The translations under genes were made by a program, and so were the position numbers. 56,090 nt of DNA from Ferruginibacter sp. (lineage in GTDB: Bacteria > Bacteroidota > Bacteroidia > Chitinophagales > Chitinophagaceae). The stretch covers positions 1-56,090 of the forward strand of contig JBMOEQ010000001.1 in the NCBI GenBank assembly GCA_049314655.1, read 5' to 3'. The notes under the pieces were generated by a model that had not been told where the DNA came from, searched no databases, and saw nothing but the letters and a program-made list of their open reading frames with translations. This document shows, in pieces, positions 2,771-25,186 of this stretch (its first letter is position 1; every line of letters starts with the position of its first letter).

Positions 2771-2825
2771 TACAAACAGCGGCAATTAATAAAATTGGTA
2801 CTTAACAAAGTTACATCGACATCAA
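2771..2825 (+). repeat. Left half of the intergenic cassette-spacer element (truncated)
   Basis: aacagcggcaattaataaaattggtacttaacaaagttacatcgac (2775) aligns with aacagcggttttccgaaattggggataaacaagaatacatcaac (9364). Confidence 0.55.
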
Positions 2826-2832
2826 TTGACAT

Positions 2833-3690
2833 CTACTCTATAACAAATTTGTACCCCCTACCATGTACATTAATAAATTTAATAGAATTATCGTCGCTTA
2901 ATTTCTTACGTAATTTAGATACCAATACATCCACATTTCTACTGATTACAACTATACCATTATCTTCCCAAATTTCTTTCATCAGTTTTTCCCTTTCTAC
3001 AATTTGATTGATATTGTCTGCAAATATTTTTAGTGCTTTTGATTCATTATCAGATAGTGTAATACTTTTATGCCCAATTTTAAGAACATTATTTTCTGTG
3101 TAAAATTGATAATTCCCTAATGGCATATATTCATTATTATCAAAGATCGATGCTGGCACTTCTTTTTTCAGAAACTTATCTTTCATATAAAAACCAACAA
3201 TACTTAATGGAATAATCAATAGCAACAACCAAAAGAAATTAAATTGGGCTTTCTGCAAAAATTCAATTTCAATAACATAACAACCCACTTCCAACTTACG
3301 GCCCCTGCACGGTGTTAAATCGCCGGTATGGCTATTTATTTCGAATGCAAAAACAGCTTCCTTTTGATTACAACTCCTCAGATTCACTATATAATCTTTT
3401 GATTGCGCATTGTTTTGAAATGTTCGTTGAATTAAATTAATGAGTGTATCTGATATAAAACCAAAATCATTTTGAAAAGAAATTTGGTATTTATGTTCAT
3501 CTATTTTCTTAACCGGCATCACCCTAGAAGAAGAATCTTTCGCTGAAAGCAACAATTGATGTCCTATATTACGCAATACCACTTCCAAATGATTTGGAGG
3601 AATCTGCTGTTGTTTATTATTAAATGCAAAAACAGTAATCAAAATACCAACTACTATAATTGAAGATCCAAAAAGAATAAATCGCTTCAT
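2833..3690 (-). CDS. Membrane-anchored transcriptional regulator with C-terminal OmpR/PhoB-type winged helix
   Basis: Two hydrophobic segments flank a Cys-containing extracytoplasmic domain. C-terminus has VEREKLMKEIW..SRNVDVLVSKLRKKL..INVHGRGYKF (Trans_reg_C). No receiver domain. Confidence 0.85.
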   Translation of the reverse strand: MKRFILFGSSIIVVGILITVFAFNNKQQQIPPNHLEVVLRNIGHQLLLSAKDSSSRVMPVKKIDEHKYQISFQNDFGFISDTLINLIQRTFQNNAQSKDYIVNLRSCNQKEAVFAFEINSHTGDLTPCRGRKLEVGCYVIEIEFLQKAQFNFFWLLLLIIPLSIVGFYMKDKFLKKEVPASIFDNNEYMPLGNYQFYTENNVLKIGHKSITLSDNESKALKIFADNINQIVEREKLMKEIWEDNGIVVISRNVDVLVSKLRKKLSDDNSIKFINVHGRGYKFVIE

Positions 3691-3695
3691 ATGTG

Positions 3696-3703
3696 CAAAA
3701 TTA
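3696..3703 (-). promoter_or_regulatory. Bacteroidota -7 promoter element (TAATTTTG) for the wHTH regulator
   Basis: Exact TAnnTTTG on the - strand, 5 nt before the ATG at 3690. Confidence 0.5.
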
Positions 3704-3728
3704 TCAATTACACAGCAGTTTAAGGATA

Positions 3729-3766
3729 TTTACAAACGTTTTACACTTGTTTTACATCTTTTTACT
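3729..3766. promoter_or_regulatory. Tandem TTTAC(A) direct repeats, candidate OmpR/PhoB-type operator
   Basis: TTTACA at 3729, 3740 and 3751, TTTACT at 3761 (11/11/10-bp period), inside the divergent promoter region. Confidence 0.6.
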
Positions 3767-3835
3767 ACTAAAAAGCTGCCCAATAATTGGCACCGGATAT
3801 CTTTACTTTATTATTTCACCAAATCAATTAAAGTT

Positions 3836-4978
3836 ATGAAGTTTATCTATCCCCTAGTTTTTTTGTGGTCCATCCCTGTTATTTCGACGCTCCTTTTTCA
3901 ACCCTTCTCTTCCTGTAACCAGGAGGTAAAATTGGCACCGTCTTCCCTTACAGATAGTGTGTTAATGCAAAAACGAGAAAAGTCTGGAGTAGCAAACATC
4001 GTTTTAAAATCCACTGATAATGGACAATCATGGCAGAACATTAGCGAAGGACTACCCAAACCTGTGCAGCAAATAAGTGCTGACGGCATAAATATTCTTT
4101 TTGCAGATGACGCTGGACTCTGGTTCTCTGCTGCGGATGGGATTTATCACAATAAATCAAATACTAAAGGTCCTTTTTGGGAAAAAGAGACTATTCCCGA
4201 AAATCATACCAGTATTGCACCCGGAAAGACAGGGATATATGCTTACAATTACGGAGGTGCAGGAATTTTTCACAAAACAAACGGATCGAGTGTGTGGACG
4301 CCGGTATTCCCCAATTTCAAGGAAAACAGCATATTCAACGTTTTTGAAACTGCCGATGGTACAATTTTTATTGGGACTTACAGGGGGCTTTTCAAATCTA
4401 CGAACAATGGAAAATCATGGAAACAACTGCCCATAGGAGGCGGTGGTAAAATAATAGAATCAAATGGTGTACTCCTTGCTACTAACGAAGCCGGTATATT
4501 AAGATCAACCGATGATGGTGAAAACTGGGCTGTGGTGATCGGTGAAGAAGGTGTGGGCATCGATGTAGAACGCATCGAAGGCGGATTCGCTGCTATTAAT
4601 TACAGTACAGCCGCAAAAACCAGAAGAATAAGAACATCGTACGACGGCGGCAAAACCTGGAAACCCATTGATGTAGGATTCCCGGGGCAAACTATAATAG
4701 ACAATATATGGATACGAAATAATGAAGATCAGCTGGCACAAGGCAATGTCGACTCTAATTGGCATGCTAAAGAAGCTCCCCATCCTCAGCTAGAGTACAA
4801 AACCACAATCATCCAAGTGGGTGAAAACTTTTTTTGTGGTCATACTAACGGCATTTACAGGTCATCAGATAAGGGTAAAACATGGAAACTGGTACGTTGT
4901 GCTGAAGAAGGAAAGATGTTTAAATTATTTGTTTCCGGCAATGTAATTTATGCAATACAAACGGCGGCACATTGTTAA
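3836..4978 (+). CDS. BNR/Asp-box repeat beta-propeller protein (YCF48/sialidase-like), probable lipoprotein
   Basis: Repeated Asp-boxes STDNGQSW, STNNGKSW, STDDGENW, SYDGGKTW, SSDKGKTW; FSSC lipobox-like sequence. Confidence 0.8.
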   Translation: MKFIYPLVFLWSIPVISTLLFQPFSSCNQEVKLAPSSLTDSVLMQKREKSGVANIVLKSTDNGQSWQNISEGLPKPVQQISADGINILFADDAGLWFSAADGIYHNKSNTKGPFWEKETIPENHTSIAPGKTGIYAYNYGGAGIFHKTNGSSVWTPVFPNFKENSIFNVFETADGTIFIGTYRGLFKSTNNGKSWKQLPIGGGGKIIESNGVLLATNEAGILRSTDDGENWAVVIGEEGVGIDVERIEGGFAAINYSTAAKTRRIRTSYDGGKTWKPIDVGFPGQTIIDNIWIRNNEDQLAQGNVDSNWHAKEAPHPQLEYKTTIIQVGENFFCGHTNGIYRSSDKGKTWKLVRCAEEGKMFKLFVSGNVIYAIQTAAHC

Positions 4979-5034
4979 ACCAGCTTAAAACTAAATAATA
5001 AAAAAAATAGTTAGATTATTTGTACGAATAGTTT

Positions 5035-5061
5035 TGTAACACCTTCCAGTTTTTCCATCTA
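5035..5061 (+). promoter_or_regulatory. Candidate ECF sigma promoter (TGTAAC-N15-CATCTA)
   Basis: AAC-type -35 and CATC/CGTC-type -10 spaced 15 nt apart, 20 nt upstream of the ATG at 5082, in the same gene run as an ECF sigma gene. Confidence 0.4.
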
Positions 5062-5081
5062 ATTGTCATAAACAAAAAAAT

Positions 5082-5741
5082 ATGAAAATGACAACTTTAG
5101 AAAATTGGATTATGTTATCAATATTTGCAGTAAATGTTTCGGCTTGCGGTGCCGAAACATTTAATTATTCTAATAACGTTAAAAACTTTGCTAAAAGCGA
5201 TACTTCCGCACTCACAACCTTAACAATTACAAAAGTGAAGAAGCCTTGGTATGCTTGGAAGGGCTTGGTTGTGGGTAAGATGAAAAAGTCATTTCCAGAA
5301 TATTCTGCTGTAAAAGGATTGGAACACAAATACTATTCCTTTACAGAAGATCACCATTATTTTGGTGGCGTTTATCTTTGGAAATCTGAACAAGATGCTA
5401 AAAATTGGTTCAATCAGGCTTGGTTTGATAGAACAGAAAAAAAATATGGAGAAAAAGGCATCGTGCAAAGTTTTCAAATTCAGCACATAAAAACAATTTC
5501 TATTCCACCAAAAAATGAAGGCCATTATTATGCGGTATTATCGTATTCAAAACATACATCAAATGACTTTAATGCCAACACAAAAGGCCTGTTTCAAATA
5601 ATTGAATTGACAGATTCAAATCAAAAACGCTGTTACCTAACTGTTTGGGAGAATATGAAAATGGCTCGTTCCTTTTTCAATTCTAACGCATTTGATAATG
5701 AATATTATGAAGTGCCACTGGTATTAAATAATGGAAAATGA
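5082..5741 (+). CDS. YdhR-like putative mono-oxygenase domain protein
   Basis: GLEHKYYSFTE..FGGVYLWKSEQDAKNWF is the YdhR/dimeric alpha-beta barrel signature. Confidence 0.7.
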   Translation: MKMTTLENWIMLSIFAVNVSACGAETFNYSNNVKNFAKSDTSALTTLTITKVKKPWYAWKGLVVGKMKKSFPEYSAVKGLEHKYYSFTEDHHYFGGVYLWKSEQDAKNWFNQAWFDRTEKKYGEKGIVQSFQIQHIKTISIPPKNEGHYYAVLSYSKHTSNDFNANTKGLFQIIELTDSNQKRCYLTVWENMKMARSFFNSNAFDNEYYEVPLVLNNGK

Positions 5742-8284: not shown

Positions 8285-8402
8285 ATGGCTGCCCACCAAC
8301 ATCAGCTCATTTTTTTAATAGGGCTTTCAAGTTCTCATTAGTCAACTACTCTACTTCAGTAGAGCCGCATGATTAATGCGTAAATAACCAATAAATCAAA
8401 AA

Positions 8403-9344
8403 ATGAAATACAATAAATACTTAAAAGACTCAACTCTAGTTTCTGAAATTGGACTTGGCGCATGGCAGTTGGGTAATAATTCAGGATGGAAAAGTATGTT
8501 GGAGAAAGATGCAATAGAACTAGTAAAAAAATCATTAGAATACGGTATAAATTTTTTTGATACAGCACCAAATTATGGACATGGAACTGGAGAAGCCAGG
8601 CTTGGTAAAGCACTTAAAGGTGTTGACAGAAGTACAATAGTAATCAATACTAAGTTTGGACATACCGATACAGGTGATATAAATTTTAGTGCAGATAATA
8701 TTCGGAAATCTTTGGAGGGCAGTCTTAAAAGATTACAAGTTGATTATGTTGATTCGCTTCTAATGCATAATCCACCTGTAACATATTTAGATGGCGAACA
8801 AAATAAGCATTACGAAATTCTTGAGCGATTAATTGAGGAGGGAAAAATAAAAGCCTATGGCGCCTCTCTGGATACTTCCGAAGACATAAAATTGTTACTG
8901 AATACTACAGGAGCAAAAGCCATTGAAGTTTTTTTTAACATACTGCACCAAGATACCGCTCAAGCATTTGTTATGGCAATCGAAAAAGAGGTTGGTATAA
9001 TCGTTAAAATCCCTCTCGACTCTGGTTGGCTTTCAGGGAAATACAATGCTGAAAGCACATTTAATGACATTAGAAGTCGTTGGTCCAAAGAAAGTATTCA
9101 AACGAGAGCACATTTGGTAAATAGAGTAAAAGAAATTATTAACGAAAAAGTTAATCTTGCACAAAAAGCTTTATCATTTTGCCTAGCTTATAAAGCTGTA
9201 TCAACCGTTATTCCGGGGAATATAAATACTGCACAGTTAAAAAATAATGTAGAAAGCGTTAATAACCCAATGACATGTGAAGTCATTAAAAATTTGGAAG
9301 ATTTTTATTTAAATGAAGTTAAACACCTTAATCTTCCTTGGTAA
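8403..9344 (+). CDS. Aldo/keto reductase
   Basis: VSEIGLGAWQLG, GINFFDTAPNYG, INTKFG, SLKRLQVDYVD.LLMH, VSTVIPG. Confidence 0.95.
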   Translation: MKYNKYLKDSTLVSEIGLGAWQLGNNSGWKSMLEKDAIELVKKSLEYGINFFDTAPNYGHGTGEARLGKALKGVDRSTIVINTKFGHTDTGDINFSADNIRKSLEGSLKRLQVDYVDSLLMHNPPVTYLDGEQNKHYEILERLIEEGKIKAYGASLDTSEDIKLLLNTTGAKAIEVFFNILHQDTAQAFVMAIEKEVGIIVKIPLDSGWLSGKYNAESTFNDIRSRWSKESIQTRAHLVNRVKEIINEKVNLAQKALSFCLAYKAVSTVIPGNINTAQLKNNVESVNNPMTCEVIKNLEDFYLNEVKHLNLPW

Positions 9345-9454
9345 ATAACATTCATTAGCAAGTAACAGCGGTTTTCCGAAATTGGGGATAAACAAGAATA
9401 CATCAACTTTAGGTTGCTATTCAACTTCAGTTAAAGGCTTGTCAGATTCTTAAA

Positions 9455-9493
9455 TTTCTTAAAACTTCACTTCAACATTATTTCCTACATTTA
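9455..9493 (+). repeat. 40-bp intergenic core motif, copy 1
   Basis: tttcttaaaacttcacttcaacattatttcctacattta. Confidence 0.8.
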
Positions 9494-9616
9494 ATTTACG
9501 TTTACGGGCTAATGGAATTTTAAACAACAACTGTACAAAGTTATCAATGTTGTTTGCTCTTAGAAAAAAATTTGCTACATCTAATCATAACTAATTTTTA
9601 CAAGAATAATAAATAT

Positions 9617-10255
9617 ATGATTAAAAAGTATTTGGTTTTGATATGCTTGCTTGCTTCAGTGCTATTCATAGTAATAGCAACATTTTATTATCCAGGCGGT
9701 TCATTGCTAGACAAAAATTCAATAGGTTTTGATTGGTCAAAAAATTTTCTAAGCAATTTGTTTGTTACGAAAGCGATAAATGGTTCGGAAAACCCTGGTT
9801 GGATTTGGGCACTTATTGGCATGGCATTTCACTCGGTTGGATATGGATTTTTTTTTATCAATATGTCGAAAAAGATTGCTCCAAAAAAATGGGCTTATAT
9901 TTTAAAAATTATAGGTGTAGCCAACATTATATTTATTTTCTTAATCGCAACACCTTTGCATGACCTGGGAACAATATCAATCATTTTAACATTGTTTGGT
10001 TTATTTACTATCACTGTATTTATCCTAAAGTCAAAACTACATTTACTTAAATTCTGCTGTATTTTTTGCTTATTGACTTATTATTGTTTCTTTGCTCTTA
10101 TAGGATTTGGATATTTAGATTTGTCATTCATAATGCAGAAAGTATATATAGTAAGCTCTATACTTTTAGTTTTAGGACTTGAGTATTTTACCAAATATGA
10201 AGACTTTATACAAATTAATTCGGGAGAACAAAAATTAGAAAAGACGAACGGCTAA
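9617..10255 (+). CDS. Multi-pass membrane protein (DUF998-like N-terminus); ATG 9617 preferred over TTG 9554
   Basis: YYPGGS..GFDWSKNFLSNLF motif and about 6 TM helices. The stop codon lies inside GGCTAAC at the left end of a spacer element. Confidence 0.75.
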   Translation: MIKKYLVLICLLASVLFIVIATFYYPGGSLLDKNSIGFDWSKNFLSNLFVTKAINGSENPGWIWALIGMAFHSVGYGFFFINMSKKIAPKKWAYILKIIGVANIIFIFLIATPLHDLGTISIILTLFGLFTITVFILKSKLHLLKFCCIFCLLTYYCFFALIGFGYLDLSFIMQKVYIVSSILLVLGLEYFTKYEDFIQINSGEQKLEKTNG

Positions 10256-10295
10256 CATCGACTATTCGCACAATGGATGCATCTATGCCCTCAAG

Positions 10296-10335
10296 TTTCT
10301 TAACCTTAAATATCAAAATTAATTTCCTACATTTA
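10296..10335 (+). repeat. 40-bp intergenic core motif, copy 2
   Basis: tttcttaaccttaaatatcaaaattaatttcctacattta. Confidence 0.9.
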
Positions 10336-10424
10336 ATACGCGTTAATGGTCAAACGAAATACTTATTCCACATCTGCTTAAACCGTTAACGATATTTGTA
10401 AGCATTTCAAAACACCTCTACTAA

Positions 10425-11463
10425 ATGCATAAGAACAAGAAAGCAGGAAAGATTATCCAGTGGGCAATTTTAATTTTACTTTTTGTTTTTTTGTATAAAG
10501 TTTTCTGGCCTAGGCATTACAATGTACAGTTGAGAGAAAAGGATATAAATAACTCATTTTGGCAGTTATCTTCTGGGTCTACTATAGCTTATACATACAT
10601 ATCCTCAACTTCAAAAAATACTCAAACGTATCCAATCATTTATCTGCATGGCGGACCAGGTGGCGCTATATCTAAGCGAGTAATTGATGATCTAACACCA
10701 CTTAGTGCCAATGGCTTTGATGTATACTTTTATGATCAAGTGGGAAGCGGCGCATCTAGTAGATTAAATGACATTTCTGAATATACTGTTCAAAGACAAG
10801 TAGAAGACTTGAATGCAATAATCACAAAAATAAATTCAGGAAAAGTTACATTAATTGGACAGTCGTGGGGCTCTGTATTAGCTGCTGTATATGTTTCAAA
10901 GCACCCCGAAAGGATTGACAAAATAATTTTTACAAGCCCTGGTCCAATTTATCCAATAAATAATACAGAGATAAACATACCGGCTCCGGATAGCTTAAAA
11001 TTACGACCTCCATTTTATACAAATAAAGCAGCAAATGAATCTTCAACGAATATTCGAATTAAAGCAATTACATTTTTCGCTACTCGCTTTGGTAAAAAAA
11101 ATCGCTTCTGATAAAGAAGTTGACGAATACGCCAACTTTCTTGATTCTAAAGCATATAAATCGGCTTTGTGTGACACCTCAGTAAACTTGGAAAATAGGG
11201 GTAGTAATGGATTTTACGCAAGCACAATGACATATAAAAGTGTATTACTTATGAAAGATTTCAGAGAGAAAATTAAAGGTTTAAATATTCCAGTTTTAAT
11301 TTTGAAGGGCCAATGCGATAATCAACCCTGGGGCGCTACCAATGAATATTTGAGTCTTTTCCCTAATCATAAATTTGTACTAATACCAAATGCAGGACAC
11401 TTCATAAATGTTGAGCAGCACGAAATGTATCTCCGTGCAATTAAAAATTTTCTACTACAATAA
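10425..11463 (+). pseudogene. Alpha/beta hydrolase (proline iminopeptidase-like) split by a frameshift in an A8 run (real or sequencing error)
   Basis: ORF 10425-11111 has YLHGGPG, YDQVGSG and GQSWG (nucleophile). ORF 11035-11463 has GQCD (Asp) and NAGH (His). Removing one A at 11094-11101 joins them. Confidence 0.85.
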
Positions 11464-11469
11464 TGCTTG

Positions 11470-11647
11470 CACATATCAGGTAATTTTGCTAAAGTTAGAC
11501 TGAAGAAAGCACAGTCAAAATGTATATTTCTATATAACTTTTGTCCAAACTTGACGAGCAACATTCAACTTTATGTTTTAACTTCAACTTTAGGCTAACG
11601 GAAAGCAATTCCCTACCCTTCAATTATACCTGCTCGTTAGCAGAAAC
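11470..11647 (+). repeat. Spacer element variant lacking the 40-bp core, with imperfect inverted ends
   Basis: Left caggtaattttgctaaagttag is partly complementary to right ctacccttcaattatacctg. Shares the ggctaacggaa..attccc block and ends in cGTTAGCA. Confidence 0.55.
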
Positions 11648-11689: not shown

Positions 11690-12391
11690 ATGACAGAATC
11701 GATTATCCCCTTACTTTCCTTAATTGCCCTAGAAGTAATTCTTGGCATTGACAATATTATTTTCATTTCAATATTGGCAGATAAATTACCCGATAACCAA
11801 AGAAGCAAACTTCGTTTTTGGGGAATAGGTTTGGCAATGGTAATGAGGCTATGTCTATTAGCCTTTATAGCTTGGATTTTAAAGCTAGACCAAACACTCT
11901 TTACGCTTTACGAAATTGACTTCTCTGGCAAAGGCTTAATACTCATTTTAGGCGGACTTTTCTTAATTTATAAAAGCACAAAAGAAATTTATCATAAATC
12001 TGAAATTGCCAATGAAACGCAACCCAATGTTCCAAAGAACAGTAGTTTTAAAAAATTACTTTCAGAAGTAATTATTTTGGATTTGGTTTTTTCTATTGAT
12101 TCAATTATTACAGCGGTGGGTATGGTTCAAGAACTTTGGGTAATGTACACAGCCGTAATTGTAACTGTTGTCATTATGCTATTTGCATCAAAACCCATAA
12201 GCGATTTTATTAGAAAACATCCTTCTTTTAAAATATTAGCCTTGTGTTTCTTAATGATGATTGGGGTTTCACTTTTGGCAGAAGGCTTTCATTTTGAAAT
12301 TCCAAAGGGTTATATTTATTTTTCTATGGCATTTGCATTTTTAGTAGATGTAATTCAAATGAAAACAATAAAACAAAAAAATACGCATTGA
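11690..12391 (+). CDS. TerC family membrane protein
   Basis: LEVILGIDNIIFI, GGLFLIYKSTKEI, DLVFSIDSIITAVGM, IPKGYIYFSMAF. Confidence 0.95.
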   Translation: MTESIIPLLSLIALEVILGIDNIIFISILADKLPDNQRSKLRFWGIGLAMVMRLCLLAFIAWILKLDQTLFTLYEIDFSGKGLILILGGLFLIYKSTKEIYHKSEIANETQPNVPKNSSFKKLLSEVIILDLVFSIDSIITAVGMVQELWVMYTAVIVTVVIMLFASKPISDFIRKHPSFKILALCFLMMIGVSLLAEGFHFEIPKGYIYFSMAFAFLVDVIQMKTIKQKNTH

Positions 12392-12670: not shown

Positions 12671-12770
12671 TATACAGGGTAAATTTTATCCCTTAGGTAG
12701 CACTCAAAAATAAATAACGACACAAGAAATCAGCACTCATCATCAAGCATAGACTTATCTACTCAGAAAG

Positions 12771-12810
12771 TTTCTAAACTTTCAATTTCAATATTATTTT
12801 CCTACATTTA
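12771..12810 (+). repeat. 40-bp intergenic core motif, copy 3
   Basis: tttctaaactttcaatttcaatattattttcctacattta. Confidence 0.88.
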
Positions 12811-12951
12811 ATAAGCGTTTCTGGATTTAATAAATTCAAGTCCCAAGCCTTCGCTAACATGCAATCTTAAGTTGCTTACGCATTGTATTGCTTGTTAAAA
12901 GCATGTACTGCAAAGGTTATAATAATCAACATTTAATTAAACTAGTTTAAA

Positions 12952-15060
12952 ATGAAATGTATACAATTATATTTTTTATTTTGTTTTGTATTTAACCAAT
13001 CGTTAAAAGCACAAAATAGTGAAGATGTAGTAAGAGATGTAATACGTTTTACAAATACCGAATGGTTTCAATCTCTTGCTCAACCAGGCAAAAAAAAATA
13101 TAAACCACAGCCGGTTGATAGCGTACTTATTGAATATGTGAATAAAGTAGAACGCAAAAAAATACTAGTTCAAACCATACAGTATATAGGGGAATTTAAA
13201 AATGGGCTTTTTCATGGCAAAGGAAAATTGTTGTTAAAACTCTATAGTCATCCTTTTCAAGAAAACAAACCGGGCACTTTTACCTACGAAGGAGATTTCG
13301 AAAATGGAGCTGCAAATGGGAAAGCGTTTTTAAACTATTCGTGGATGTATACCCCTTGGGAAATGAAGCCAATTTTAGTGAAAATGAATTGTCAGGCAGA
13401 ATTTGAAAATGGTCTCTTAAAAAGAGGCCTATTAAGAGCCGACCACACGCTGAACGATGTACCTGTATTAACAAATTATTATAGTGGAGATATGTATTTG
13501 AAAAACCTAAATCCGGTTTTAAACGGAATGGGAATTCTATATATATCTAAAAATAGTCCCGGTAGCGAAATGGCAAAAAGATCCCCTGGCATTGATGGCG
13601 GTTTTTATGCCGGGAGTTTTTTTCATGGGGAAAATACAGGTTATGCGATATGCAATAATTTTAATGCAGCAAAAAATGAACTCAGCAACTTATTGCTTGG
13701 AATAGTAGGTAAAGGAGAACTCATTCATACTTTTTCAACCCTACCGGTTAAGCATGATTGGAGTTACAATGAAGTACCTTCTACTCAAAATAAGTCTGAA
13801 AATTTTTCAAAACTATTTGGGAATTTCAAAGAAGTTAAAAAAGCCACCATCTATCTTGATAAAGAAAATAAATACACCGGTGGTATAAAAGATGATTTAC
13901 CGCACGGTATCGGTTACATAGAAAATGGAAATGGATTTTATGATCTTTCATTTTGGAATGCAGGGAAACGACTTTCAGTAAAAGAAGTGCTAGGCAGTTT
14001 GCTGGACGATAGCTCAATGATACATATGAAAAGATTTGAAAAGAAAGTAACAAAAGAATATACTTCCAATAAAGGAACAAGGAAGGAAAAACTTATTTTA
14101 AAAGCAGATTATTTCGGAAAAATCAATCAAAATGGGCACCCCGAAGGATGGGGAATTTTGTTAAATAAAAAGGATTATGATGAAGACTATCATATGCACT
14201 ATGATTCAGCAGAATATACAGTAGAAAGATCAATAATTGGATATTTTAATGGGCTTGATATTTATGAAAATTACACCCAAACAAACATGAGCCATCTTAT
14301 AAAAGACGAATATAAAGACAAAGCGTTCATTGTTGGCTTAAGGGAAAATGATATTTTTCGAACCTATGCATTTCTTCCTAGTTACATCAAAATTGGAGAA
14401 ATGTTTCCAAGGATAACAGAATATTACAGCTATACAACACCAACAATAGCTGTTTTAGAAACCGAAAGTTTTAAAGAAGATATATATGCTTATCAGAAAA
14501 CAAAATATGCTGAAATGACTTACATCTCCAATAGGAAATCCATTGAAATATCTAAAGTTTACCTTTCCTCCATCAGGGGAAATAGTTACATAGAATCATC
14601 GCTTGGTACAATTAAATTGCAAGAACTACCAGCAGATGAAATCAAATATGGAGATTTTGTTTTATACAATGATGTTTTTTACGAAGTAAATAGAGCGGGC
14701 ATGTTAAACGATTACATTGCTCCAAATCCCAACAACCCACACCTTTCAGTCGCTGAAGCCTTTAAGAACAAAGTAGGATATGTACTCAAAGGTTACTGGA
14801 TGGTTGCAAGGTATGAAACCGACCCAAATAAAGTTTGTGTTTACTGTGGAGGTAAAGATCCCGGAAAATCAACCTATACAGGTGTAGGATATACAGGTAG
14901 ATATGAAACTAATAAGTACAACAACAACTCGGGCGGTATTAGTATTGTTACAAAACCCATTACAACCATTACCACTGTTACTGTAGAAAATAAACCCTGT
15001 AAATATTGTAAGGGTAATGAAGCAAAACGGAGGGTAAGTGCTAATATTATAAGAGATTAA
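12952..15060 (+). CDS. Secreted protein with MORN-like repeats and C-terminal split CxxCxG zinc finger
   Basis: Signal peptide; YIGEFKNGLFHGKG, YEGDFENGAANGKA, YTGGIKDDLPHGIG; CVYCGG...CKYCKG near the C-terminus. Confidence 0.7.
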   Translation: MKCIQLYFLFCFVFNQSLKAQNSEDVVRDVIRFTNTEWFQSLAQPGKKKYKPQPVDSVLIEYVNKVERKKILVQTIQYIGEFKNGLFHGKGKLLLKLYSHPFQENKPGTFTYEGDFENGAANGKAFLNYSWMYTPWEMKPILVKMNCQAEFENGLLKRGLLRADHTLNDVPVLTNYYSGDMYLKNLNPVLNGMGILYISKNSPGSEMAKRSPGIDGGFYAGSFFHGENTGYAICNNFNAAKNELSNLLLGIVGKGELIHTFSTLPVKHDWSYNEVPSTQNKSENFSKLFGNFKEVKKATIYLDKENKYTGGIKDDLPHGIGYIENGNGFYDLSFWNAGKRLSVKEVLGSLLDDSSMIHMKRFEKKVTKEYTSNKGTRKEKLILKADYFGKINQNGHPEGWGILLNKKDYDEDYHMHYDSAEYTVERSIIGYFNGLDIYENYTQTNMSHLIKDEYKDKAFIVGLRENDIFRTYAFLPSYIKIGEMFPRITEYYSYTTPTIAVLETESFKEDIYAYQKTKYAEMTYISNRKSIEISKVYLSSIRGNSYIESSLGTIKLQELPADEIKYGDFVLYNDVFYEVNRAGMLNDYIAPNPNNPHLSVAEAFKNKVGYVLKGYWMVARYETDPNKVCVYCGGKDPGKSTYTGVGYTGRYETNKYNNNSGGISIVTKPITTITTVTVENKPCKYCKGNEAKRRVSANIIRD

Positions 15061-15181
15061 TAAGTGGATTCGTTTAAGCTAAATTTTAACTGTTGAAATG
15101 GATAATTTGAAACTCATTTTAAAAATAAAAAATGTTCACAAATAGTAGCTTTAAGAAATTAGAGATTAGATACTCCACAAG

Positions 15182-15221
15182 CTTCCTAACGATTTAAATC
15201 AAATTTATTTACCTACATTTA
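15182..15221 (+). repeat. 40-bp intergenic core motif, copy 4
   Basis: cttcctaacgatttaaatcaaatttatttacctacattta. Confidence 0.8.
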
Positions 15222-15350
15222 AAGGGCGATTTTCTGTTTAATTAATATGAATTCCCATTTTGCAAAATGCTATCATTGGAAATCGATAGTATAATCGAAT
15301 TTCTCTTAGCTATTAAAATAATAAAATCATCAACTTAAAATCTAATCAAC

Positions 15351-15782
15351 ATGGCGCAAATCAATCCGCATATAAACTTCAATGGAAATGCAGAAGAAGC
15401 ATTTAATTTTTACAAATCTGTATTTGGAGGAGCGTTTGCGCAAATAATGCGTTTCAAAGATTTAGCCAGTGATGAATTTCCAGTTGCAGAAAATGAAGCC
15501 AATAAAATAATGCACATTGCTTTACCCATCGGCAATAGTATTTTAATGGCGAATGATGTACCTGAAATAATGGGAAGAACCAACGAAAATGAAAATAGAA
15601 GTAAAATTGTGATTAGTGCAGAAAGCAAAGAAGAAGCCGACAAATTATTCAATGGACTTTCTGAAGGCGGACAAATTGAAATGCCTATTTCCGACAGCCC
15701 TTGGGGCTCCTATTTTGGCATGTTTAGAGACAAATATGGAATTGAATGGATAGTAGATTTTGCATCGAATAATAAAGGATAA
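15351..15782 (+). CDS. VOC family protein (PhnB/glyoxalase-like)
   Basis: INPHINFNGNAEEAFNFYKSVFGG, IMHIALPIG, PWGSYFGMFRDKYGIEW. Confidence 0.95.
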   Translation: MAQINPHINFNGNAEEAFNFYKSVFGGAFAQIMRFKDLASDEFPVAENEANKIMHIALPIGNSILMANDVPEIMGRTNENENRSKIVISAESKEEADKLFNGLSEGGQIEMPISDSPWGSYFGMFRDKYGIEWIVDFASNNKG

Positions 15783-15890
15783 ATTTAGAAGGAGAAAACA
15801 ATAATCGTCCAAAGTATTTTTTTTATTGGCACAAAACATTGTTTTTCAATTATAATTATAAATTCAGTAAAAAACCAATCGATTCGCAAG

Positions 15891-15930
15891 TTTCTTAACA
15901 CCTATTATCAAAATTATTTTACTAAATTTA
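15891..15930 (+). repeat. 40-bp intergenic core motif, copy 5
   Basis: tttcttaacacctattatcaaaattattttactaaattta. Confidence 0.85.
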
Positions 15931-15992
15931 GATTGCTTTATCAATTTGTTTGAACCGAATCTTAGTATTGCTTTAAGGCTTAAAAAACGTAA

Positions 15993-17051
15993 GTGCATAA
16001 TACTAATTTCTACGATGTGAAAAGTATTAATATTTTCTTTTTTTCAGGCACAGGAAATGCAAAACGTATTGCCTTATGGATATATGAACTGTCGCAAGAA
16101 AAAAACATTGATTGCCATATAAATAATATCGCCAACTTCGCTCCATCAAAAATTGAAAGCATTGACAAAGAGGCTTTAATTGTTTTTATTTCGCCAATAC
16201 ATGGATTTAATTATCCAAAAATCACTTTAGATTTTATTCGGAATTTTCCTAAAGGAAAGAACAAAATTTTGCTACTGAATACTCGTGCTGGCATGAAAAT
16301 TGGCAAATGGGTTACTCCGGGTTTAACAGGTATTGCCTTTTTTATAAGTTCGCTTTGGTTACGAAATAAAGGATATAAAATTATTGGGCAAATTCCCTAT
16401 GACATGCCTTCAAATTGGATTTCAATTCACCCCGCATTAAATGAACAAACAGTTCAATATATTCACAGGGCAATTAAAATTAAAGTAAACAATCATTTTA
16501 CTAGAATATTTCAAGGAGACAAATTATTTCTATCGCATAAAGAAATCATACAAGATATTTTAGTGACCCCAATTAGTTTGCTATATTATATAATAGGAAG
16601 ATTTATTATTGCAAAAACATTTTATTCAACACACCTATGCGACAATTGTGGCATTTGTATAAAAGAATGCCCAGTATCAGCAATAAAACTAGTAGACGAC
16701 AAACCATTTTGGACAATAAAATGTGAAAGTTGTATGCGGTGTATGAATTTTTGTCCAAAAAAAGCAATTGAAACTTCACATGGATTATTGGTTTTAATTT
16801 TTCTTCTTTACCCTATATTAGTTGGCTTAGTATACAAATTTATACTAACTGGGATAGAACTTTCTGGCTTTGCAAAATTTTGCTTAAGTAATTTAATTTT
16901 TTTTATTACACTAATTGTACTTTATAGAGTACAACACTTACTTTTAAAAAACAAGTTTCTATCAAAATTAATTTCCTATACTTCTTTAACTTATTATAAA
17001 TTTTGGGGGAGATATAAATCAATAGCTGATAAAAATTGGAAAGATAAATAA
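15993..17051 (+). CDS. EFR1-family flavodoxin/4Fe-4S ferredoxin fusion with C-terminal TM helices (start may be GTG 16017)
   Basis: FFSGTGNA flavodoxin loop, MPSNW, CDNCGICIKECP and CESCMRCMNFCP. Confidence 0.9.
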   Translation: MHNTNFYDVKSINIFFFSGTGNAKRIALWIYELSQEKNIDCHINNIANFAPSKIESIDKEALIVFISPIHGFNYPKITLDFIRNFPKGKNKILLLNTRAGMKIGKWVTPGLTGIAFFISSLWLRNKGYKIIGQIPYDMPSNWISIHPALNEQTVQYIHRAIKIKVNNHFTRIFQGDKLFLSHKEIIQDILVTPISLLYYIIGRFIIAKTFYSTHLCDNCGICIKECPVSAIKLVDDKPFWTIKCESCMRCMNFCPKKAIETSHGLLVLIFLLYPILVGLVYKFILTGIELSGFAKFCLSNLIFFITLIVLYRVQHLLLKNKFLSKLISYTSLTYYKFWGRYKSIADKNWKDK

Positions 17052-17053
17052 TA

Positions 17054-17135
17054 CTGCCGTCAACAAGGTAATTTGCAAATACAGGACAGCATACTCAATA
17101 TCACCTTTCGCCTATAACTAACTTTGGAGGAATTT
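17054..17135 (+). repeat. Short or eroded spacer element left end
   Basis: ctgccgtcaacaaggtaatttgc follows the stop codon directly and resembles atcaggtaattttgc at ~11474. Confidence 0.35.
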
Positions 17136-18976: not shown

Positions 18977-19080
18977 AAATACGCCTTATAGCTGCTCCTA
19001 TACAATTGCAGTTATTCAAGGTTAGATCCGCATTATTCTACACCAGTCATCTTCCATCATCGGCTGTGCTGCAGCAATTG

Positions 19081-19120
19081 TTTCATAACATTCAATATCA
19101 AAATTAATTTCCTAAATTTA
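19081..19120 (+). repeat. 40-bp intergenic core motif, copy 6
   Basis: tttcataacattcaatatcaaaattaatttcctaaattta. Confidence 0.9.
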
Positions 19121-19228: not shown

Positions 19229-20194
19229 ATGAAAGCAAGTGTATATACAAAATATGGGCCACCGGAAGTAGCCAAAGTATTGGAAGTACCCATGCCGTTG
19301 CCAAAAAACAATGAAGTATTGGTTAGGGTTTATTCTTCTACTGTAAACAGAACAGATGCTGGCTTCCGTAGTGCAGCATATTTTATTTCAAGATTTTGGA
19401 GTGGACTTTTACGCCCTAAGTATCAAATATTAGGATGTGAGTTTGCAGGTATTATTGAAGATATTGGGACTGCTGTAACAACATTCAAGAAAGGCGACAA
19501 AGTTTTTGGCTTTAACGATAAAACTTTTGGTGGACATGGCGAGTATTTAACGATTGCTGAAACGGAGGCAGTAACAATTATGCCAGACAACTTTAGTTTC
19601 GATGAAGCGGCAGCGCTTACTGAAGGAGCCCATTATGCCTTAGTAGATATTAGAGCAGCAAAAATTCATCATGGACAAAACGTTTTAGTATATGGAGCAA
19701 CAGGAGCTATTGGTACAGCTGCTATTCAATTATTAAAACATTTTGGTGCAATAGTAACTGCAGTTTGTAATACAAAAAATATAGCACTCGTAAAATCACT
19801 AGGTGCCCATGCAGTAATTGATTATCAAACACAGGATTTCACAAATACAGCAATAAAATTTAACTTCATTTTTGACGCTGTTGGTAAAAGCTCATTTAAA
19901 CAATGCAAGCCATTATTAACTGAAAATGGAATTTATATTTCTACCGAACTTGGAAAAAATGGCGTAAACATACTTTTGGCACTTATAACACCATTATGGG
20001 GAGGCAAAAAACTATTATTTCCAATGCCCACTATTACAAAAGATGATGTAATTTTTTTAAAAGAATTAGTCCAAAAAGGAGAATATAAATCTGTGATAGA
20101 TAGGACATATAAGTTAGACCAAATTGTGGAGGCCTATAAATACGTTGAAACTGGACAAAAAACAGGAAATGTTATTCTAAAAATTGTTGAATAA
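19229..20194 (+). CDS. NAD(P)-dependent MDR-family oxidoreductase (quinone reductase/ADH-like)
   Basis: YGPPEV, ILGCEFAG, FKKGDKVFG, YGATGAIG, GQKTGNVIL. Confidence 0.95.
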   Translation: MKASVYTKYGPPEVAKVLEVPMPLPKNNEVLVRVYSSTVNRTDAGFRSAAYFISRFWSGLLRPKYQILGCEFAGIIEDIGTAVTTFKKGDKVFGFNDKTFGGHGEYLTIAETEAVTIMPDNFSFDEAAALTEGAHYALVDIRAAKIHHGQNVLVYGATGAIGTAAIQLLKHFGAIVTAVCNTKNIALVKSLGAHAVIDYQTQDFTNTAIKFNFIFDAVGKSSFKQCKPLLTENGIYISTELGKNGVNILLALITPLWGGKKLLFPMPTITKDDVIFLKELVQKGEYKSVIDRTYKLDQIVEAYKYVETGQKTGNVILKIVE

Positions 20195-20295
20195 TACTAG
20201 ACACGAACATCTACCCTATTCAATTATGGCTTGACAAAGTTATTTCAGCAACAAGCTTCAAATCTACTTCACCCCTCAGTTATTTTGCTCCCTAT

Positions 20296-20334
20296 TTTCT
20301 TAACTTTCAAAACAAACTTATTTCCCTAAATTTA
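20296..20334 (+). repeat. 40-bp intergenic core motif, copy 7
   Basis: tttcttaactttcaaaacaaacttatttccctaaattta. Confidence 0.8.
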
Positions 20335-20518: not shown

Positions 20519-21973
20519 ATGGAAAGTCTTAAACAACTACAACACGATTTGCAAGTGCTTGAAAAGAAAATAACCAATGCAACTGTAATTCATAAAAAGA
20601 CAATTTCTAAGCTACATGAATTGCAACAAAAAAGCGCATCTAATTTAATCCAATATTTAGCTTTAAGAAATGAAGACATTCGTTTATTGCAAGACAATTT
20701 GCATCAAGCAGGTTTATCTAGTTTGGCCAGTTCAGAAAGTCATATATTAAAGCAAGTTCAATCTATACGGCAAAGACTAGGCGCCACAATAAAAGAAAAG
20801 GAATTATCAAGTTTTGATTTTTATAGTGCTCAAAACCAATTAAACAGGGTTACGACTGACTTATTTGGATTTAAAAAAGATCATTCTATTCCGCATATAA
20901 TGGTTACGCTTGATACTTCTTTTGAACACAACTTACCCATTATTAAAAAATTAATTGAAGCAGGCATGAATGTAGCACGCATTAATTGTGCTCATGGTGA
21001 TGAAAAGAGCTGGCTATTATTAATTGAAGCGGTGCGCAATGCTGTAGAAAAAAGTGGGCGCCCTTGCAAAATATACATGGATATTGCAGGCCCCAAAATG
21101 CGTGTTGATTTACCCGGAAAAGGAAAGGAAAAAGGTACTCTACAAGTAAAATTAGGAATGGAAATTTTATTGGTTGAAACTGGTGAAGAAGTAACAGATG
21201 ATGAAAATGCAATAGCCTGTTATGAAACCGGTGTATTCTTAAACCTGAAAGCCGGTGAAAGAATAATAATAGATGATGGAAAATTTGAAGGAATAGTAAT
21301 CAAAAAGAATGACAAGACTTTTTTAAAAATAACTCGAATTTCTTCAAAAAAGCCTTTTATAAAAAAGGAAAAAGGAATAAATCTACCTGATACTCATATA
21401 GACCTACCTGCACTTACCAAATCTGATTTAAAAAATATTCCCTTTATTGCCAAATATGCAAATTTAGTTGGATGTAGTTTTTTACGAAACACAAATGACC
21501 TAAAGCATGTTAGAAAAATATTCAATAAATTTAAAGTAAAGCCAAAGCTAATTCTCAAGATAGAAACGCCAGATGCAGTTATTAATTTACCATCATTATT
21601 ACTTGAAGCCATGAAAGAAGAATCATATGGCGTAATGATTGCAAGAGGAGACCTCGCTGTTGAAATTGGTTTTGAAAGATTAAGTGAAATTCAAGATGAA
21701 ATTTTATGGATATGTGAAGCTGCTCATGCACCAGTGATTTGGGCAACTCAAGTACTCGAATCTTTTAGCAAATCGGGCATTGCTACACGCGGCGAAGTTA
21801 CAGATGCTGCTCATGCCGCTAAAGCAGAATGTGTAATGCTTAATAAAGGCGATTACATTGTAGATACTATAAAGCTTTTGAAGAAAATTCTAAACAAAAG
21901 TGGTGGACATCGGCAAAAAAAACGGTACAGTATGCGTCCTTTAAATATTGCAACACATTTTTTTAATCAATAA
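20519..21973 (+). CDS. pyk: Pyruvate kinase, atypical architecture (N-terminal helical extension, no C-terminal allosteric domain)
   Basis: GMNVARINCAH, MDIAGPKMR, KGINLP, LKIET, MIARGDLAVE, WATQVLES, TRGEVTD, ECVMLN. Confidence 0.9.
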   Translation: MESLKQLQHDLQVLEKKITNATVIHKKTISKLHELQQKSASNLIQYLALRNEDIRLLQDNLHQAGLSSLASSESHILKQVQSIRQRLGATIKEKELSSFDFYSAQNQLNRVTTDLFGFKKDHSIPHIMVTLDTSFEHNLPIIKKLIEAGMNVARINCAHGDEKSWLLLIEAVRNAVEKSGRPCKIYMDIAGPKMRVDLPGKGKEKGTLQVKLGMEILLVETGEEVTDDENAIACYETGVFLNLKAGERIIIDDGKFEGIVIKKNDKTFLKITRISSKKPFIKKEKGINLPDTHIDLPALTKSDLKNIPFIAKYANLVGCSFLRNTNDLKHVRKIFNKFKVKPKLILKIETPDAVINLPSLLLEAMKEESYGVMIARGDLAVEIGFERLSEIQDEILWICEAAHAPVIWATQVLESFSKSGIATRGEVTDAAHAAKAECVMLNKGDYIVDTIKLLKKILNKSGGHRQKKRYSMRPLNIATHFFNQ

Positions 21974-22057: not shown

Positions 22058-22096
22058 ATATCTTTCAGATTGACTAACTGTCAATCTGAAAGATAT
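22058..22096. repeat. Perfect 17-bp inverted repeat (hairpin), possible terminator of pyk
   Basis: atatctttcagattgac-taact-gtcaatctgaaagatat. Confidence 0.85.
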
Positions 22097-22242
22097 AATA
22101 CATTTACTATGCTTTAAAGTCATACAGAATTAAATTGATCAATTACTTTATACTTATAAAGTACCTAAAAATTATATATGAGCTGCCATTTTAATTAATG
22201 CTCATTTCAATAAATTTATAGCACAGTTTTCTGACTTTGAAA

Positions 22243-22467
22243 ATGCAAGTGTACCAAAACCTAAAAAATATTGTATCTACAATTCTGGCAATTTGTATTG
22301 TTACCATACTACCTCATCTAGTAAATTTTCCATTTCCATTTGGTTAAGTAATTCCAATCATCTTTTTTATTGGCCTGTACTTGAAACTTAATAAAGATAA
22401 CTTCTCGACATTAGGGTTCAACTTCAAGGCTTTTACTTCCAACAGCAATACGAATTGGCTTCAATAA
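22243..22467 (+). pseudogene. Membrane-protein gene relic (resembles the N-terminus of CPBP/CAAX intramembrane proteases)
   Basis: MQVYQNLKNIVSTILAICIVTILPHLVNFPFPFG*VIPIIFFIGLYLKLNKDNFSTLGFNFK with in-frame TAA at 22345-22347. Family call is from recall; the catalytic part is absent. Confidence 0.5.
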
Positions 22468-22590
22468 TTTTACTGAAGCATTCAAACCAAAATAAAACCA
22501 ATCTGCCAAAATTGAATATTCATTTATATTTTGGCAAGAAATTAAATTTTTTTTAACTCACTTCATTGGCTGAATTGAATAATCGTTAAT

Positions 22591-22630
22591 TTTCTTAACA
22601 CTAAATTTCAAAATTAATTCTTTAAATTTA
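22591..22630 (+). repeat. 40-bp intergenic core motif, copy 8
   Basis: tttcttaacactaaatttcaaaattaattctttaaattta. Confidence 0.82.
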
Positions 22631-22763
22631 TTTCCTAATTAAAGGAAAACGGAATACATATTCCTAAGCTTAATTTCACAGATAAGATAATTTTAGGCCG
22701 ATATCTTAAAAAATATCGGCATGTTAATAAGAAAATAATTAATAGCTATTTTATATTATTAGT

Positions 22764-23624
22764 ATGAAAAATCTCCTTCTTTTGCTAATAGTGATATTGT
22801 GCCAAAATATGTACTCATTTTCACAAACAAATCAAGCGCAAAATCAAAAAAAATATTTAACACGCTTAAAAGGCAGTTGGACTTTATCAGATTGGCGTGA
22901 TCGTGATAAAAAATACAGAGATGAGGATGGTTACTTTATTTTTTCAGACAATAATATAGTAACAGCTATATATAGGAATGACACTATAAGAGGTTCATTC
23001 GTTTACAATGCTCAGAAAAATCCTCATTGGATAGATTTTAAGTGGAAATCTAACACAGGGAAAATAACTCAAACACATGGGATTATTAAATGGCAAGATG
23101 ATGTAACTGCTAGATTAAATTTGGTTCAAAAAAATGTATTACGTCCAACCAAATTTGTTGATGATCCTGATCTTGACAAATCTGGTATTCTTAGAAAACA
23201 AGGAAACACTTCTGGTAATTCAAACAATAGCTTATTGAAAGAAAACCTAATTAAAGGCAAATGGGATATTACGCTTTTATATGAAGCCGATAAATATAAA
23301 TCTGGCAAAAAATATCAAACTTATACCTTTCATGAAGATAATAGGTATATTTTGTCAGGCACAGGCTTTATTCCAGGAACATCGGGTGGTGGTCGTTACG
23401 AATTGAATACAGATAAGTTTCCATATTGGATAGATTTTTATCCAGATGAAGGGGCCAAAACTATGGGTTTAATACAAGAGTACTTGAATGGCTATAAACT
23501 CCAAATTTTCAATAAACATTTTGAAGATGGCCACCCAATTAGATTCTACGACGTTGAATATAATGACCCAAGTATTATTAATTTCAACTCCAACTTTTTA
23601 TACATCGAACGCTCTTCAAATTGA
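22764..23624 (+). CDS. Secreted protein with two tandem lipocalin-like (TIGR03067-like) domains
   Basis: Signal peptide; internal duplication LKGSW..KNPHWIDF..GII and IKGKW..KFPYWIDF..GLI. Confidence 0.6.
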   Translation: MKNLLLLLIVILCQNMYSFSQTNQAQNQKKYLTRLKGSWTLSDWRDRDKKYRDEDGYFIFSDNNIVTAIYRNDTIRGSFVYNAQKNPHWIDFKWKSNTGKITQTHGIIKWQDDVTARLNLVQKNVLRPTKFVDDPDLDKSGILRKQGNTSGNSNNSLLKENLIKGKWDITLLYEADKYKSGKKYQTYTFHEDNRYILSGTGFIPGTSGGGRYELNTDKFPYWIDFYPDEGAKTMGLIQEYLNGYKLQIFNKHFEDGHPIRFYDVEYNDPSIINFNSNFLYIERSSN

Positions 23625-23657
23625 AATAATAAATAACACAACTATAAGTACTGCAAA

Positions 23658-24341
23658 ATGAAAAAAGAATTTTTTATTGTAAGCGCTGTTATACTCGTTT
23701 GCTTTACACATATTTCTTGGACTATAAGTAACCGGGATTTAAAAGAAAAAAAATATTGGGCAGAAGTAAGAATTGGCAATCAAACTTGGATGGCAGAAAA
23801 CTTAAATGTTTGTACTTTCCGAAATGGGGATACCATTCAAGAAGCTAAAACTTTAAATGAATGGAGATCAGCTGCAAAAAAGAAAATACCTGCATGGTGT
23901 TATTTCAATAACGATAGCAGTAATGGATTAAAACATGGGAAGATGTATAATTTTTATCCAGTAAATGATTCAAGAGGATTAGCACCAATCAATTGGCGAA
24001 TACCAAGTGGAGAAGATTGGAAACAACTGTCCAATTATTTAGGGGGTAAATTAATTGCTGGCGGCAAAATGAAAAGCACGAGCGGTTGGCACGCAAATGG
24101 CAATGGAACAAATTCAAGTGGCTTTAACGGTTATGCCAGTGGTTCACGAGAGCTTGCAATGATTACTAAAAATGAAGGATTTTTAAGCCTAGGTAGTATT
24201 AGTTATTGGTGGAGTAGCACAAAAGATAAAAGAACAAATGAAGTTTTAGTTTTTTCAGTAAGTTGGAATAATAATAAACTATTGCCTATTTGGGATACTT
24301 TTAGTTCTGATGGTTATGCTGTTCGCTGTATCAAAAATTGA
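23658..24341 (+). CDS. Fibrobacter succinogenes major paralogous (FISUMP) domain protein
   Basis: VRIGNQTWMAENL, FRNGD.I, PAWCYFNND, LAP..WRIPS..DW, NSSGF, YWWSST, GYAVRCIK. Confidence 0.92.
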   Translation: MKKEFFIVSAVILVCFTHISWTISNRDLKEKKYWAEVRIGNQTWMAENLNVCTFRNGDTIQEAKTLNEWRSAAKKKIPAWCYFNNDSSNGLKHGKMYNFYPVNDSRGLAPINWRIPSGEDWKQLSNYLGGKLIAGGKMKSTSGWHANGNGTNSSGFNGYASGSRELAMITKNEGFLSLGSISYWWSSTKDKRTNEVLVFSVSWNNNKLLPIWDTFSSDGYAVRCIKN

Positions 24342-24655
24342 AATTGAACAAAACAATTTTTAATTGTCTAAATACGCATTTATTTGCACAGATGAAATTG
24401 AAATAATCTATCAAAACGCTAACACAGGCTTAACTAGAAAAAAGTCCTATAGACATTGTAGTTGAATTTGACTAAACTATACTCCTTGATCTTGATTTCG
24501 TTAATTTGAAATTAAAGCAAGAAGATAAACTTCATTAGAAAGTTAATCTTTTATCAAGTAATTTAATTACAATACATATCCCAATGTTTGGCTATTGTTG
24601 TTTCACTTCGATTAAATTTATCCTACAACCTCCGTTTTAAAAAAAATGAAATAAT

Positions 24656-25186
24656 ATGTGTAGATATGCTATTCCATATAAACCGCATTATGCTTGTTTT
24701 AAATGCAGAAAAACATTTAAACGCAGGTTGATGTCGGACATTGTACGAGGATCAAGAACGATATTTGAAGCAAAGTGTCCGGAATGTGGAGGATTGATGG
24801 CGAGCATGGGACTAGATTTTGAATCGCCCAAAAAAACGGATACTAAAGCGTGGACACATATGGAAAGACTTTATTCAGTAGGTGTAACATTTCATTCTTG
24901 TGGTTGTACCGGGCCGGGTTATATCCCTAGTTCAAAAGAAAAACTGATTGAGTATTTTGAAAAAATCATTTGTATTTATCAATCCAACTTAGCATTCTGG
25001 CGCCAAAGAACCGAACCCTCAACAGAAAGAGAATTACAAAGAGAAAAAAGTAAGTATTGGAAATTTTTAAGTAAAATACCACAAACGATAACCCCCAAAA
25101 AAGGTGCAATTGCAACAGATGACGCAAAAAAATATTGGCTTGATAAAATAAAACAAGTGGAAGAAAAAATATTATCTATTCAATAA
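24656..25186 (+). CDS. Hypothetical Cys-rich (zinc-ribbon-like) protein
   Basis: YACFKCRKTF, KCPECG, MGLDF, FHSCGCTGPGYIP. Confidence 0.75.
   Translation: MCRYAIPYKPHYACFKCRKTFKRRLMSDIVRGSRTIFEAKCPECGGLMASMGLDFESPKKTDTKAWTHMERLYSVGVTFHSCGCTGPGYIPSSKEKLIEYFEKIICIYQSNLAFWRQRTEPSTERELQREKSKYWKFLSKIPQTITPKKGAIATDDAKKYWLDKIKQVEEKILSIQ

Follow-up and report, generated by a model that had tools for sequence, protein, structure and literature searches.

What are the repeated sequences that separate a long row of co-oriented genes in a Ferruginibacter genome, and how did the genes come to stand in such a row? The question arises from a 56,090 nt stretch of DNA, here called the window, on contig C1 of the genome assembly G000 (3.59 Mb in 493 contigs, 93.7% complete). 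A sequence-only reading had seen in it a degenerate integron-like gene-capture array, and this is borne out by relatives, in which homologous sites are intact, cassette ends match and orientation is fixed. Probably, the row is the frozen remnant of an integron-like gene-capture array of Bacteroidota, in which the spacers are decayed cassette sites of about 190 nt that run from AAC to GTT. The cassettes were likely inserted by a recombinase that this genome appears to have lost. The system is integron-like in its working, yet it stands outside the canonical integrons, because the associated enzyme lacks the defining integrase domain.

All 17 credible genes between 3836 and 25186 lie on the plus strand, as the sequence-only reading had it (18 open reading frames, with 10425-11111 and 11035-11463 forming one frameshifted gene). 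Minus-strand open reading frames in this range have at most 120 codons and all overlap plus-strand genes. According to Pfam, the cargo consists of accessory functions without relation to each other. Co-orientation by itself is not diagnostic, because the genes at 29621-42563 are also nearly all on the plus strand (14 of 15) and have no convincing site.

The repeated core inside longer units, noted in the same reading, is a sequence of about 45 nt that is present in eight spacers between 9449 and 22645, always on the plus strand, with weaker alignment of the flanks across about 190-200 nt. A degenerate pattern derived from the core copies finds six copies at three mismatches or fewer and has no match in 100 shuffles, a circular comparison in that the pattern was made from the same copies. 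Spacers were also scored by methods that use whole sites. In alignments to a site library, with z-scores from 12 shuffles each, eight of the 18 spacers in 2743-25248 exceed z 5, the spacer 15061-15350 reaches z 4.8, and two weak remnants begin at 2775 and 8298; the four spacers between 3691 and 7044 gave no site. Among 15 spacers scored outside that range, one reached z 5.6, against an AT-rich library member. A custom covariance model, for which 19 sites of relatives and nothing from G000 were used, ranks six window spacers on top, all on the plus strand and with E-values of 0.03 or below. A search of Rfam with the repeat gave no family match, and only one match at chance level. The well-supported array extends from about 8.3 to 22.7 kb. 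This is shorter than the 2771-25186 originally proposed. The AAC and GTT motifs that had been quoted as site ends are all present. Those at 9361, 10250, 20204, 9547, 11635 and 19173 fall on site ends mapped by comparison with an intact homologue or with the G000-free model, and those at 17059 (z 1.1) and 24417 (z 1.8, on the wrong strand) begin no recognisable site. The imperfect complementarity noticed between 15141 and 15250 fits the decayed arms of a 137-nt site variant, if weakly, with 15 of the first 30 bases identical to the intact left arm.

An undecayed version of the site exists. The core pattern has a single exact match in the metagenome collection, within an intact 190-nt site (L092:1881-2070) that has AAC right after a stop codon and GTT at its end. 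It is followed by a gene for 121 amino acids and a second site, and the two ends of this cassette match at 12 of 13 bases. The L092 site finds 15 matches in G000 at E-values up to 1. These copies are 58-62% identical to it outside the core and 78% in the core (shuffled targets, 35-58%), and their majority base is the L092 base at 167 of the 190 positions. Long sites contain three copies of a short internal box (L092 offsets 22, 72 and 144), and the lengths of the 140-nt and 137-nt sites in the window fit a loss of 50 nt between boxes 1 and 2. Other G000 contigs carry at least six further clear single copies of the core. Further single decayed sites, of the same and other subfamilies, were seen on contigs C2, C17, C22, C30, C47, C143, C205 and C355, and C47 terminates inside one.

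The core-bearing subfamily appears to be rare, because the tight core pattern has no match in 300 other genomes of the order. A shorter core pattern matched once each in five of 150 genomes of the genus, which is not above the reversed control, and a phylum-wide blastn search of 400 other genomes gave two matches, to the right part only. Viral contigs gave no match, and the intact L092 site was unmatched in plasmid and phage collections. Loose contig ends in two freshwater runs supply further intact members of the L092 site family. The covariance model has matches in 92 of 100 same-genus genomes, with up to 199 bits, and the best G000 match has 51 bits.

Arrays from five genomes of relatives provide 227 full-length sites and 204 cassettes. 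A strict end-pairing detector gave just 4 sites in 20 loci, and matched-end and profile methods were used instead. In the matched-end test, which compares 13 bases at each cassette end, the two ends of the same cassette agree at 11 or more bases in 177 of the 204 cassettes, compared to 1.8% of random pairs. The mean match is 11.35 bases for a cassette's own ends, 7.29 for the two flanks of one site, and 7.19 for random pairs. A mismatch recurs at position 11 of the 13 in 46 of 54 selected cassettes, and fixed mismatches exist. All 244 matches in the fetched intact arrays are on one strand, and the longest open reading frame is co-oriented in 188 of the 204 cassettes. The full-length sites begin with AAC in 224 of 227 cases and end with GTT in all 227, so the loose fit of the window sites to RYYYAAC/GTTRRRY is due to decay. 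The arms covary: across 19 intact sites, pairing holds in 87.5% of arm cells (35-46% in slid registers), and 14 of 18 stem pairs show compensatory changes. The closed genome G417 has at least 150 intact sites, in clusters of about 98 and 52 by hand count, and all 150 that were scored lie on one strand. Its second array (C1:1964711-2019297, about 52 intact sites) has no adjoining array-head recombinase and is probably served in trans.

For two window cassettes, movement as a unit can be traced. The 9617-10255 gene has homologues in four genomes and four different neighbourhoods, and in three of the four the DNA similarity ends at 10256-10258. The G417 copy is flanked by two intact sites. The 3' end of the window cassette equals the end of the G417 cassette at 12 of 13 bases, and its 5' leader is in register with the GTT of the copy in G365; leader and end of the homologues are in register with the window GTT at 9549 and AAC at 10254. 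The hydrolase cassette shares window positions 10393-11466, and nothing else, with a 3356-nt contig of another organism (depth 29.9 versus about 5). The shared part has 105 differences and one gap, is bounded by GTT and AAC ends, and is free of the additional base that causes the frameshift in the window. As the sequence-only reading had anticipated for a cassette array, gene neighbours differ between relatives, homology ends at mapped GTT and AAC ends for these two cassettes, and target-site duplications were not found; in intact homologues, a flank resembles the far end of the cassette next to it and not the other flank. The GAT/ATC pair at the ends of the hydrolase cassette was considered as a variant crossover triplet, and rejected in favour of decay, as the pair is found in none of the 227 intact sites and the copy on contig C30 has no matching end.

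What enzyme could have assembled the array? In relatives, the co-oriented cassettes are preceded by a tyrosine recombinase of 345-411 residues that is encoded in the same direction as the cassettes. This array-head recombinase is found 0.8-3.1 kb before the first site in four of the five genomes tested, and as a broken match only in the fifth. At the place of the IntI insertion, the L069 enzyme has 24 residues where IntI4 has 66, about 42 fewer. Four proteins score 175-212 bits against the integron-integrase model TIGR02249 (cut-off 265), and none of the five genomes, including the closed G417, has a protein above the cut-off. After the recombinase gene stands a lone GTT that agrees at 12 of 13 bases with the far end of the first cassette (loci L069, L072, L086 and L087). 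The window has no integron platform and no such attI-like GTT, and the array-head recombinase is absent from the 93.7% complete G000 assembly, both next to the array and elsewhere.

The window does encode a tyrosine recombinase at 42670-43533, of a different kind. Its best named homologues come from Bacteroidota, several of them from Chitinophagaceae. Homologues belong to elements in which an IS91-family transposase follows, above the NF033538 cut-off. These elements (loci L023-L040) are found at the AAC end of sites that resemble attC, in antisense orientation to the cassettes. Of 17 loci in 10 assemblies, 15 have a left end in common. The window gene is a remnant of such an element, because G000 has no match to the transposase and the left-end motif is also missing. 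In all 18 copies (about 43600-43615 on the minus strand of the window, and the 17 loci), the upstream ATG stands in another frame than the recombinase and has 8-9 A in a row after it; judging from this sequence pattern, programmed slippage or frameshifting is likely. Solo copies of IS91-type recombinases, 44-49% identical and without an intact adjacent transposase open reading frame, were also seen in the same genus (L064, L065 and L066 in G001, G005 and G007), and are possibly domesticated.

By analogy with integrons (PMC11023631), one strand of a site would fold back and bring its two ends together in a duplex, and the recombinase would make its crossover at G/TT. A cassette would comprise the TT, the gene and the site that follows; it would be excised as a circle in which the two 13-base ends pair, and be re-inserted at the attI-like GTT that directly follows the recombinase gene. 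In the Ferruginibacter genome, loss of the recombinase would have left the sites to drift by G/C to A/T changes and deletions, while useful genes stayed and one or more genes turned into pseudogenes.

Could the cassettes have been moved by something else? It is improbable that a real array was served by the IS91-linked recombinase (or by an HUH transposase), with 42670-43533 as the cognate enzyme, even though this is the sole tyrosine recombinase unlike XerC/D that was found by query in G000, lies on the same contig, has the catalytic H-x-x-R-H and Y motifs, and has homologues that insert at the AAC end of these very sites. The gene is some 20 kb away from the last site, runs convergently to the array and has neither transposase nor element end; its homologues inside arrays are antisense, as a parasite might be; intact arrays begin directly after the other recombinase; and the window sites have decayed despite its open frame. 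As the array integrase it was rejected. Nor do we hold much with the idea that the sites are ordinary leftovers of a canonical IntI elsewhere or lost, which we judge highly improbable. Such leftovers would likewise show AAC/GTT ends, one co-oriented gene per cassette and matching cassette ends, which are all integron features, and a standard-tool survey reports a single complete integron in Bacteroidetes proper (PMC9024848). However, even G417 with its many intact sites has no integrase above the TIGR02249 cut-off, and the array-head enzyme lacks about 42 residues of IntI4 and points in the direction of the cassettes.

A dispersed element, either a miniature inverted-repeat transposable element (MITE) or of the repetitive extragenic palindromic type, could in principle have inserted between pre-existing genes. 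The single copies on other contigs and the imperfect inverted repeats at the ends would suit such an element, and yet we give it hardly any credence. Orientation is fixed, the flanks of one site match each other like random sequences, and genes have been carried with their ends between organisms (cassettes 10391-11477 and 9549-10256). The end complementarity belongs to the gene and not to the site, which excludes a MITE. A last proposal, compatible with a frozen array, concerns the core, which might be a promoter or regulator-binding site kept by selection to express each downstream gene after the freeze; we regard this as possible, though rather unlikely. The core is nearer to the intact site than the rest, also by base class (A/T 81% versus 72%, G/C 72% versus 54%), with the proviso that both the copies and the intact reference were ascertained through the core. 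The octamer TAnnTTTA is kept in eight of eight window copies and three of seven elsewhere (p 0.026, post hoc, and again in the core by which the copies were found). The -7 consensus of Bacteroidota is TAnnTTTG, from which the octamer differs in the last base. A -33 element is not evident, the promoter context scores of the cores run from -1.8 to 3.2, in overlap with an antisense null of -1.4 +/- 2.3, and two site remnants have no core.

Several observations weigh against the frozen integron-like array that we favour. The assembly, with its 493 contigs and 93.7% completeness, could have left an array-head recombinase unassembled, and the assignment of this enzyme is by gene position. No excision joints were found among the contigs examined, in which rare forms are dropped. 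Matching own ends are found in one of five window cassettes tested (10391-11477), and discrete cassettes elsewhere have been demonstrated for two of the 17 window genes. In the loci read, homologues of the aldo/keto reductase, glycoside hydrolase, dehydrogenase, VOC and TerC genes mostly have no intact site alongside, and in G410 the VOC and glycoside hydrolase homologues keep their order, separated by about 2 kb that holds other genes. The L092 site was itself retrieved via the core pattern. The count of compensatory changes is tilted towards the arm structure, which was chosen by eye on sites pre-selected for duplex energy; the whole intact site has no end-to-end minimum-energy fold (z -0.84 for the bottom strand, -1.43 for the top strand); and the bottom-strand duplex is more stable in 24 of 36 sites, a weak preference.

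The state of the window sites agrees with an array at rest. Both terminal triplets are intact at 9364-9551 only. The arms pair poorly: at three window sites that were correctly delimited, the arm duplex has -4.7 to -6.2 kcal/mol, and 24 intact long sites average -17.1. Relative to the L092 site, the G000 copies have retained 51% of G, 61% of C, and 75-76% of A and T. The cargo genes are under purifying selection: pN/pS is 0.08-0.35 in all eight genes tested, and 0-0.11 for window-private changes in all five that were testable. The array is likely frozen, with useful genes retained.

Among known systems, the sedentary chromosomal integrons, such as the Vibrio cholerae array with its IntI, attI, Pc and attC, are most instructive. 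They share the long rows of co-oriented one-gene cassettes (near 100 in G417), sites with AAC/GTT ends and paired arms, genome-specific site families, and a tyrosine recombinase at the array head. In contrast to them, the recombinase described here lacks the IntI insertion, falls under the integron-integrase cut-off and has the direction of the cassettes, and the sites are about 185-200 nt long, with three internal repeat boxes and the recurrent mismatch at position 11 of the end match. Clusters of attC sites without an integron integrase, called CALIN, are likely degraded integrons (PMC9024848). The window resembles them as an orphan, decaying site cluster without an enzyme, but the parent system is not IntI-based and has no Rfam match. 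An 'integron-like' subgroup of tyrosine recombinases that lack the IntI insertion includes those of IS91 and IS3 elements (bioRxiv 10.1101/542381). The array-head enzyme is likewise IntI-related without the insertion, and 42670-43533 is in an IS91-linked element; unlike here, the available part of that preprint draws no link from such enzymes to cassette arrays or to insertion at attC-like sites.

A literature search, in which supplements were outside the scope and most subscription papers were not covered, found no description of this system. Bacteroidota are listed among the phyla with integrons (PMC8618304), the additional domain is given as an IntI criterion (PMC2426708), and cassette-borne promoters are covered (PMC8876359); the available parts of PMC8565304, PMC6391281, PMC13616975 and PMC13674405 do not describe such a system. 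We lean slightly towards a wider proposal, that Bacteroidota have a second, widespread integron class, with an IntI sister recombinase without the insertion domain, folded sites of about 190 nt and arrays of at least 100 cassettes. The sites would be parasitised by a site-specific IS91-integrase element. After loss of the enzyme, the array would be domesticated: arms decay, genes are selected, and the internal box is kept as the promoter of each gene. Intact-looking cassette sites are present in 92 of 100 genomes of one genus, and should the array-head recombinase prove to work without the IntI insertion, current views of where integron-type gene capture occurs would need revising, as would the accepted domain requirement. 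The window represents the end stage, a cassette array that is becoming ordinary fixed chromosome. By itself, the locus is dead and a poor experimental target; the arrays of relatives are good targets, in which the claim is directly testable.

Table 1. Sites, cassettes and genes in the window (positions are those of the whole stretch; L092 is the intact reference site)
Position	Strand	Feature	Support
2775..2838	+	Probable left-hand site remnant, begins AAC, truncated by minus-strand regulator gene; weak	Local alignment to positions 1-59 of L092 site, z 3.5
8298..8385	+	Partial site, deleted for core and right arm, with left end and left interior still present; right end approximate; weak	blastn of L092 site matches 8336-8360, E 0.004; AAC at 8298, z 2.6
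8403..9344	+	Aldo/keto reductase gene, cargo that lies before site 9364	PF00248
9364..9551	+	Best-kept long site, 188 nt, AAC...GTT; core 9452-9493	End-to-end L092 alignment z 30; covariance model E 2.6e-12
9549..10256	+	Cassette with 212-aa gene 9617-10255, no Pfam/NCBIfam family	G417 has it as an intact cassette
10254..10393	+	Short site variant, 140 nt; terminal GAT in place of GTT; core 10293-10335	83% identity to L092 core and right half
10391..11477	+	Cassette with frameshifted alpha/beta hydrolase gene (10425-11463, break near 11096)	PF00561; own ends match 11/13
11475..11638	+	Related-subfamily site without 45-nt core, 164 nt, ATC...GTT	Covariance model E 8.9e-09; z 8.2
11690..12391	+	TerC-family membrane protein gene	PF03741; pN/pS 0.10
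12674..12873	+	Decayed long site; core 12768-12810; ends approximate	z 10.9
12952..15060	+	702-aa gene with MORN repeat	PF02493
15141..15277	+	Heavily decayed short site variant, 137 nt; core 15179-15221	Core match E 1.3e-11; z 4.8
15351..15782	+	VOC/glyoxalase-family gene	PF06983, PF00903; pN/pS 0.08
15800..15991	+	Decayed long site; core 15888-15930; ends approximate	z 12.1
15993..17051	+	4Fe-4S domain protein gene	PF00037
17168..18976	+	Glycoside hydrolase family 2 gene	PF02836, PF02837
18990..19178	+	Decayed long site, 189 nt, AAC now AGC, GTT kept; core 19078-19120	z 26; covariance model E 2.2e-4
19229..20194	+	Zinc-binding dehydrogenase gene	PF13602, PF08240
20206..20392	+	Decayed long site, AAC still intact, GTT decayed; core 20292-20334	z 15.3; covariance model E 0.0076
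20519..21973	+	Pyruvate-kinase-like gene	PF00224; under NCBIfam cut-offs
22500..22690	+	Most decayed long site; core 22588-22630; ends approximate	Core match E 4.9e-07; z 6.0
42670..43533	-	Tyrosine recombinase gene, remnant of integrase and IS91-transposase element, outside array	Homologues 58-68% identity, then IS91-family transposase

Outside the supported array, the window has more runs of co-oriented accessory genes, at 16-2742 and 29621-42563, which may be older, wholly eroded parts of the array. A homologue of the acetyltransferase gene at 2293-2742 begins 62 nt past an intact site in G417. The run at 29621-42563 includes a metallo-beta-lactamase-fold gene (31901-32635, plus strand), beside which no site was detected and whose product gives the impression of a subclass B1 enzyme. 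A gene of the serine beta-lactamase family is located at 866-2296 on the plus strand. Finally, 43906-47223 on the minus strand encodes a protein of 1105 amino acids, with repeats of about 339 nt and matches to BppL_N.

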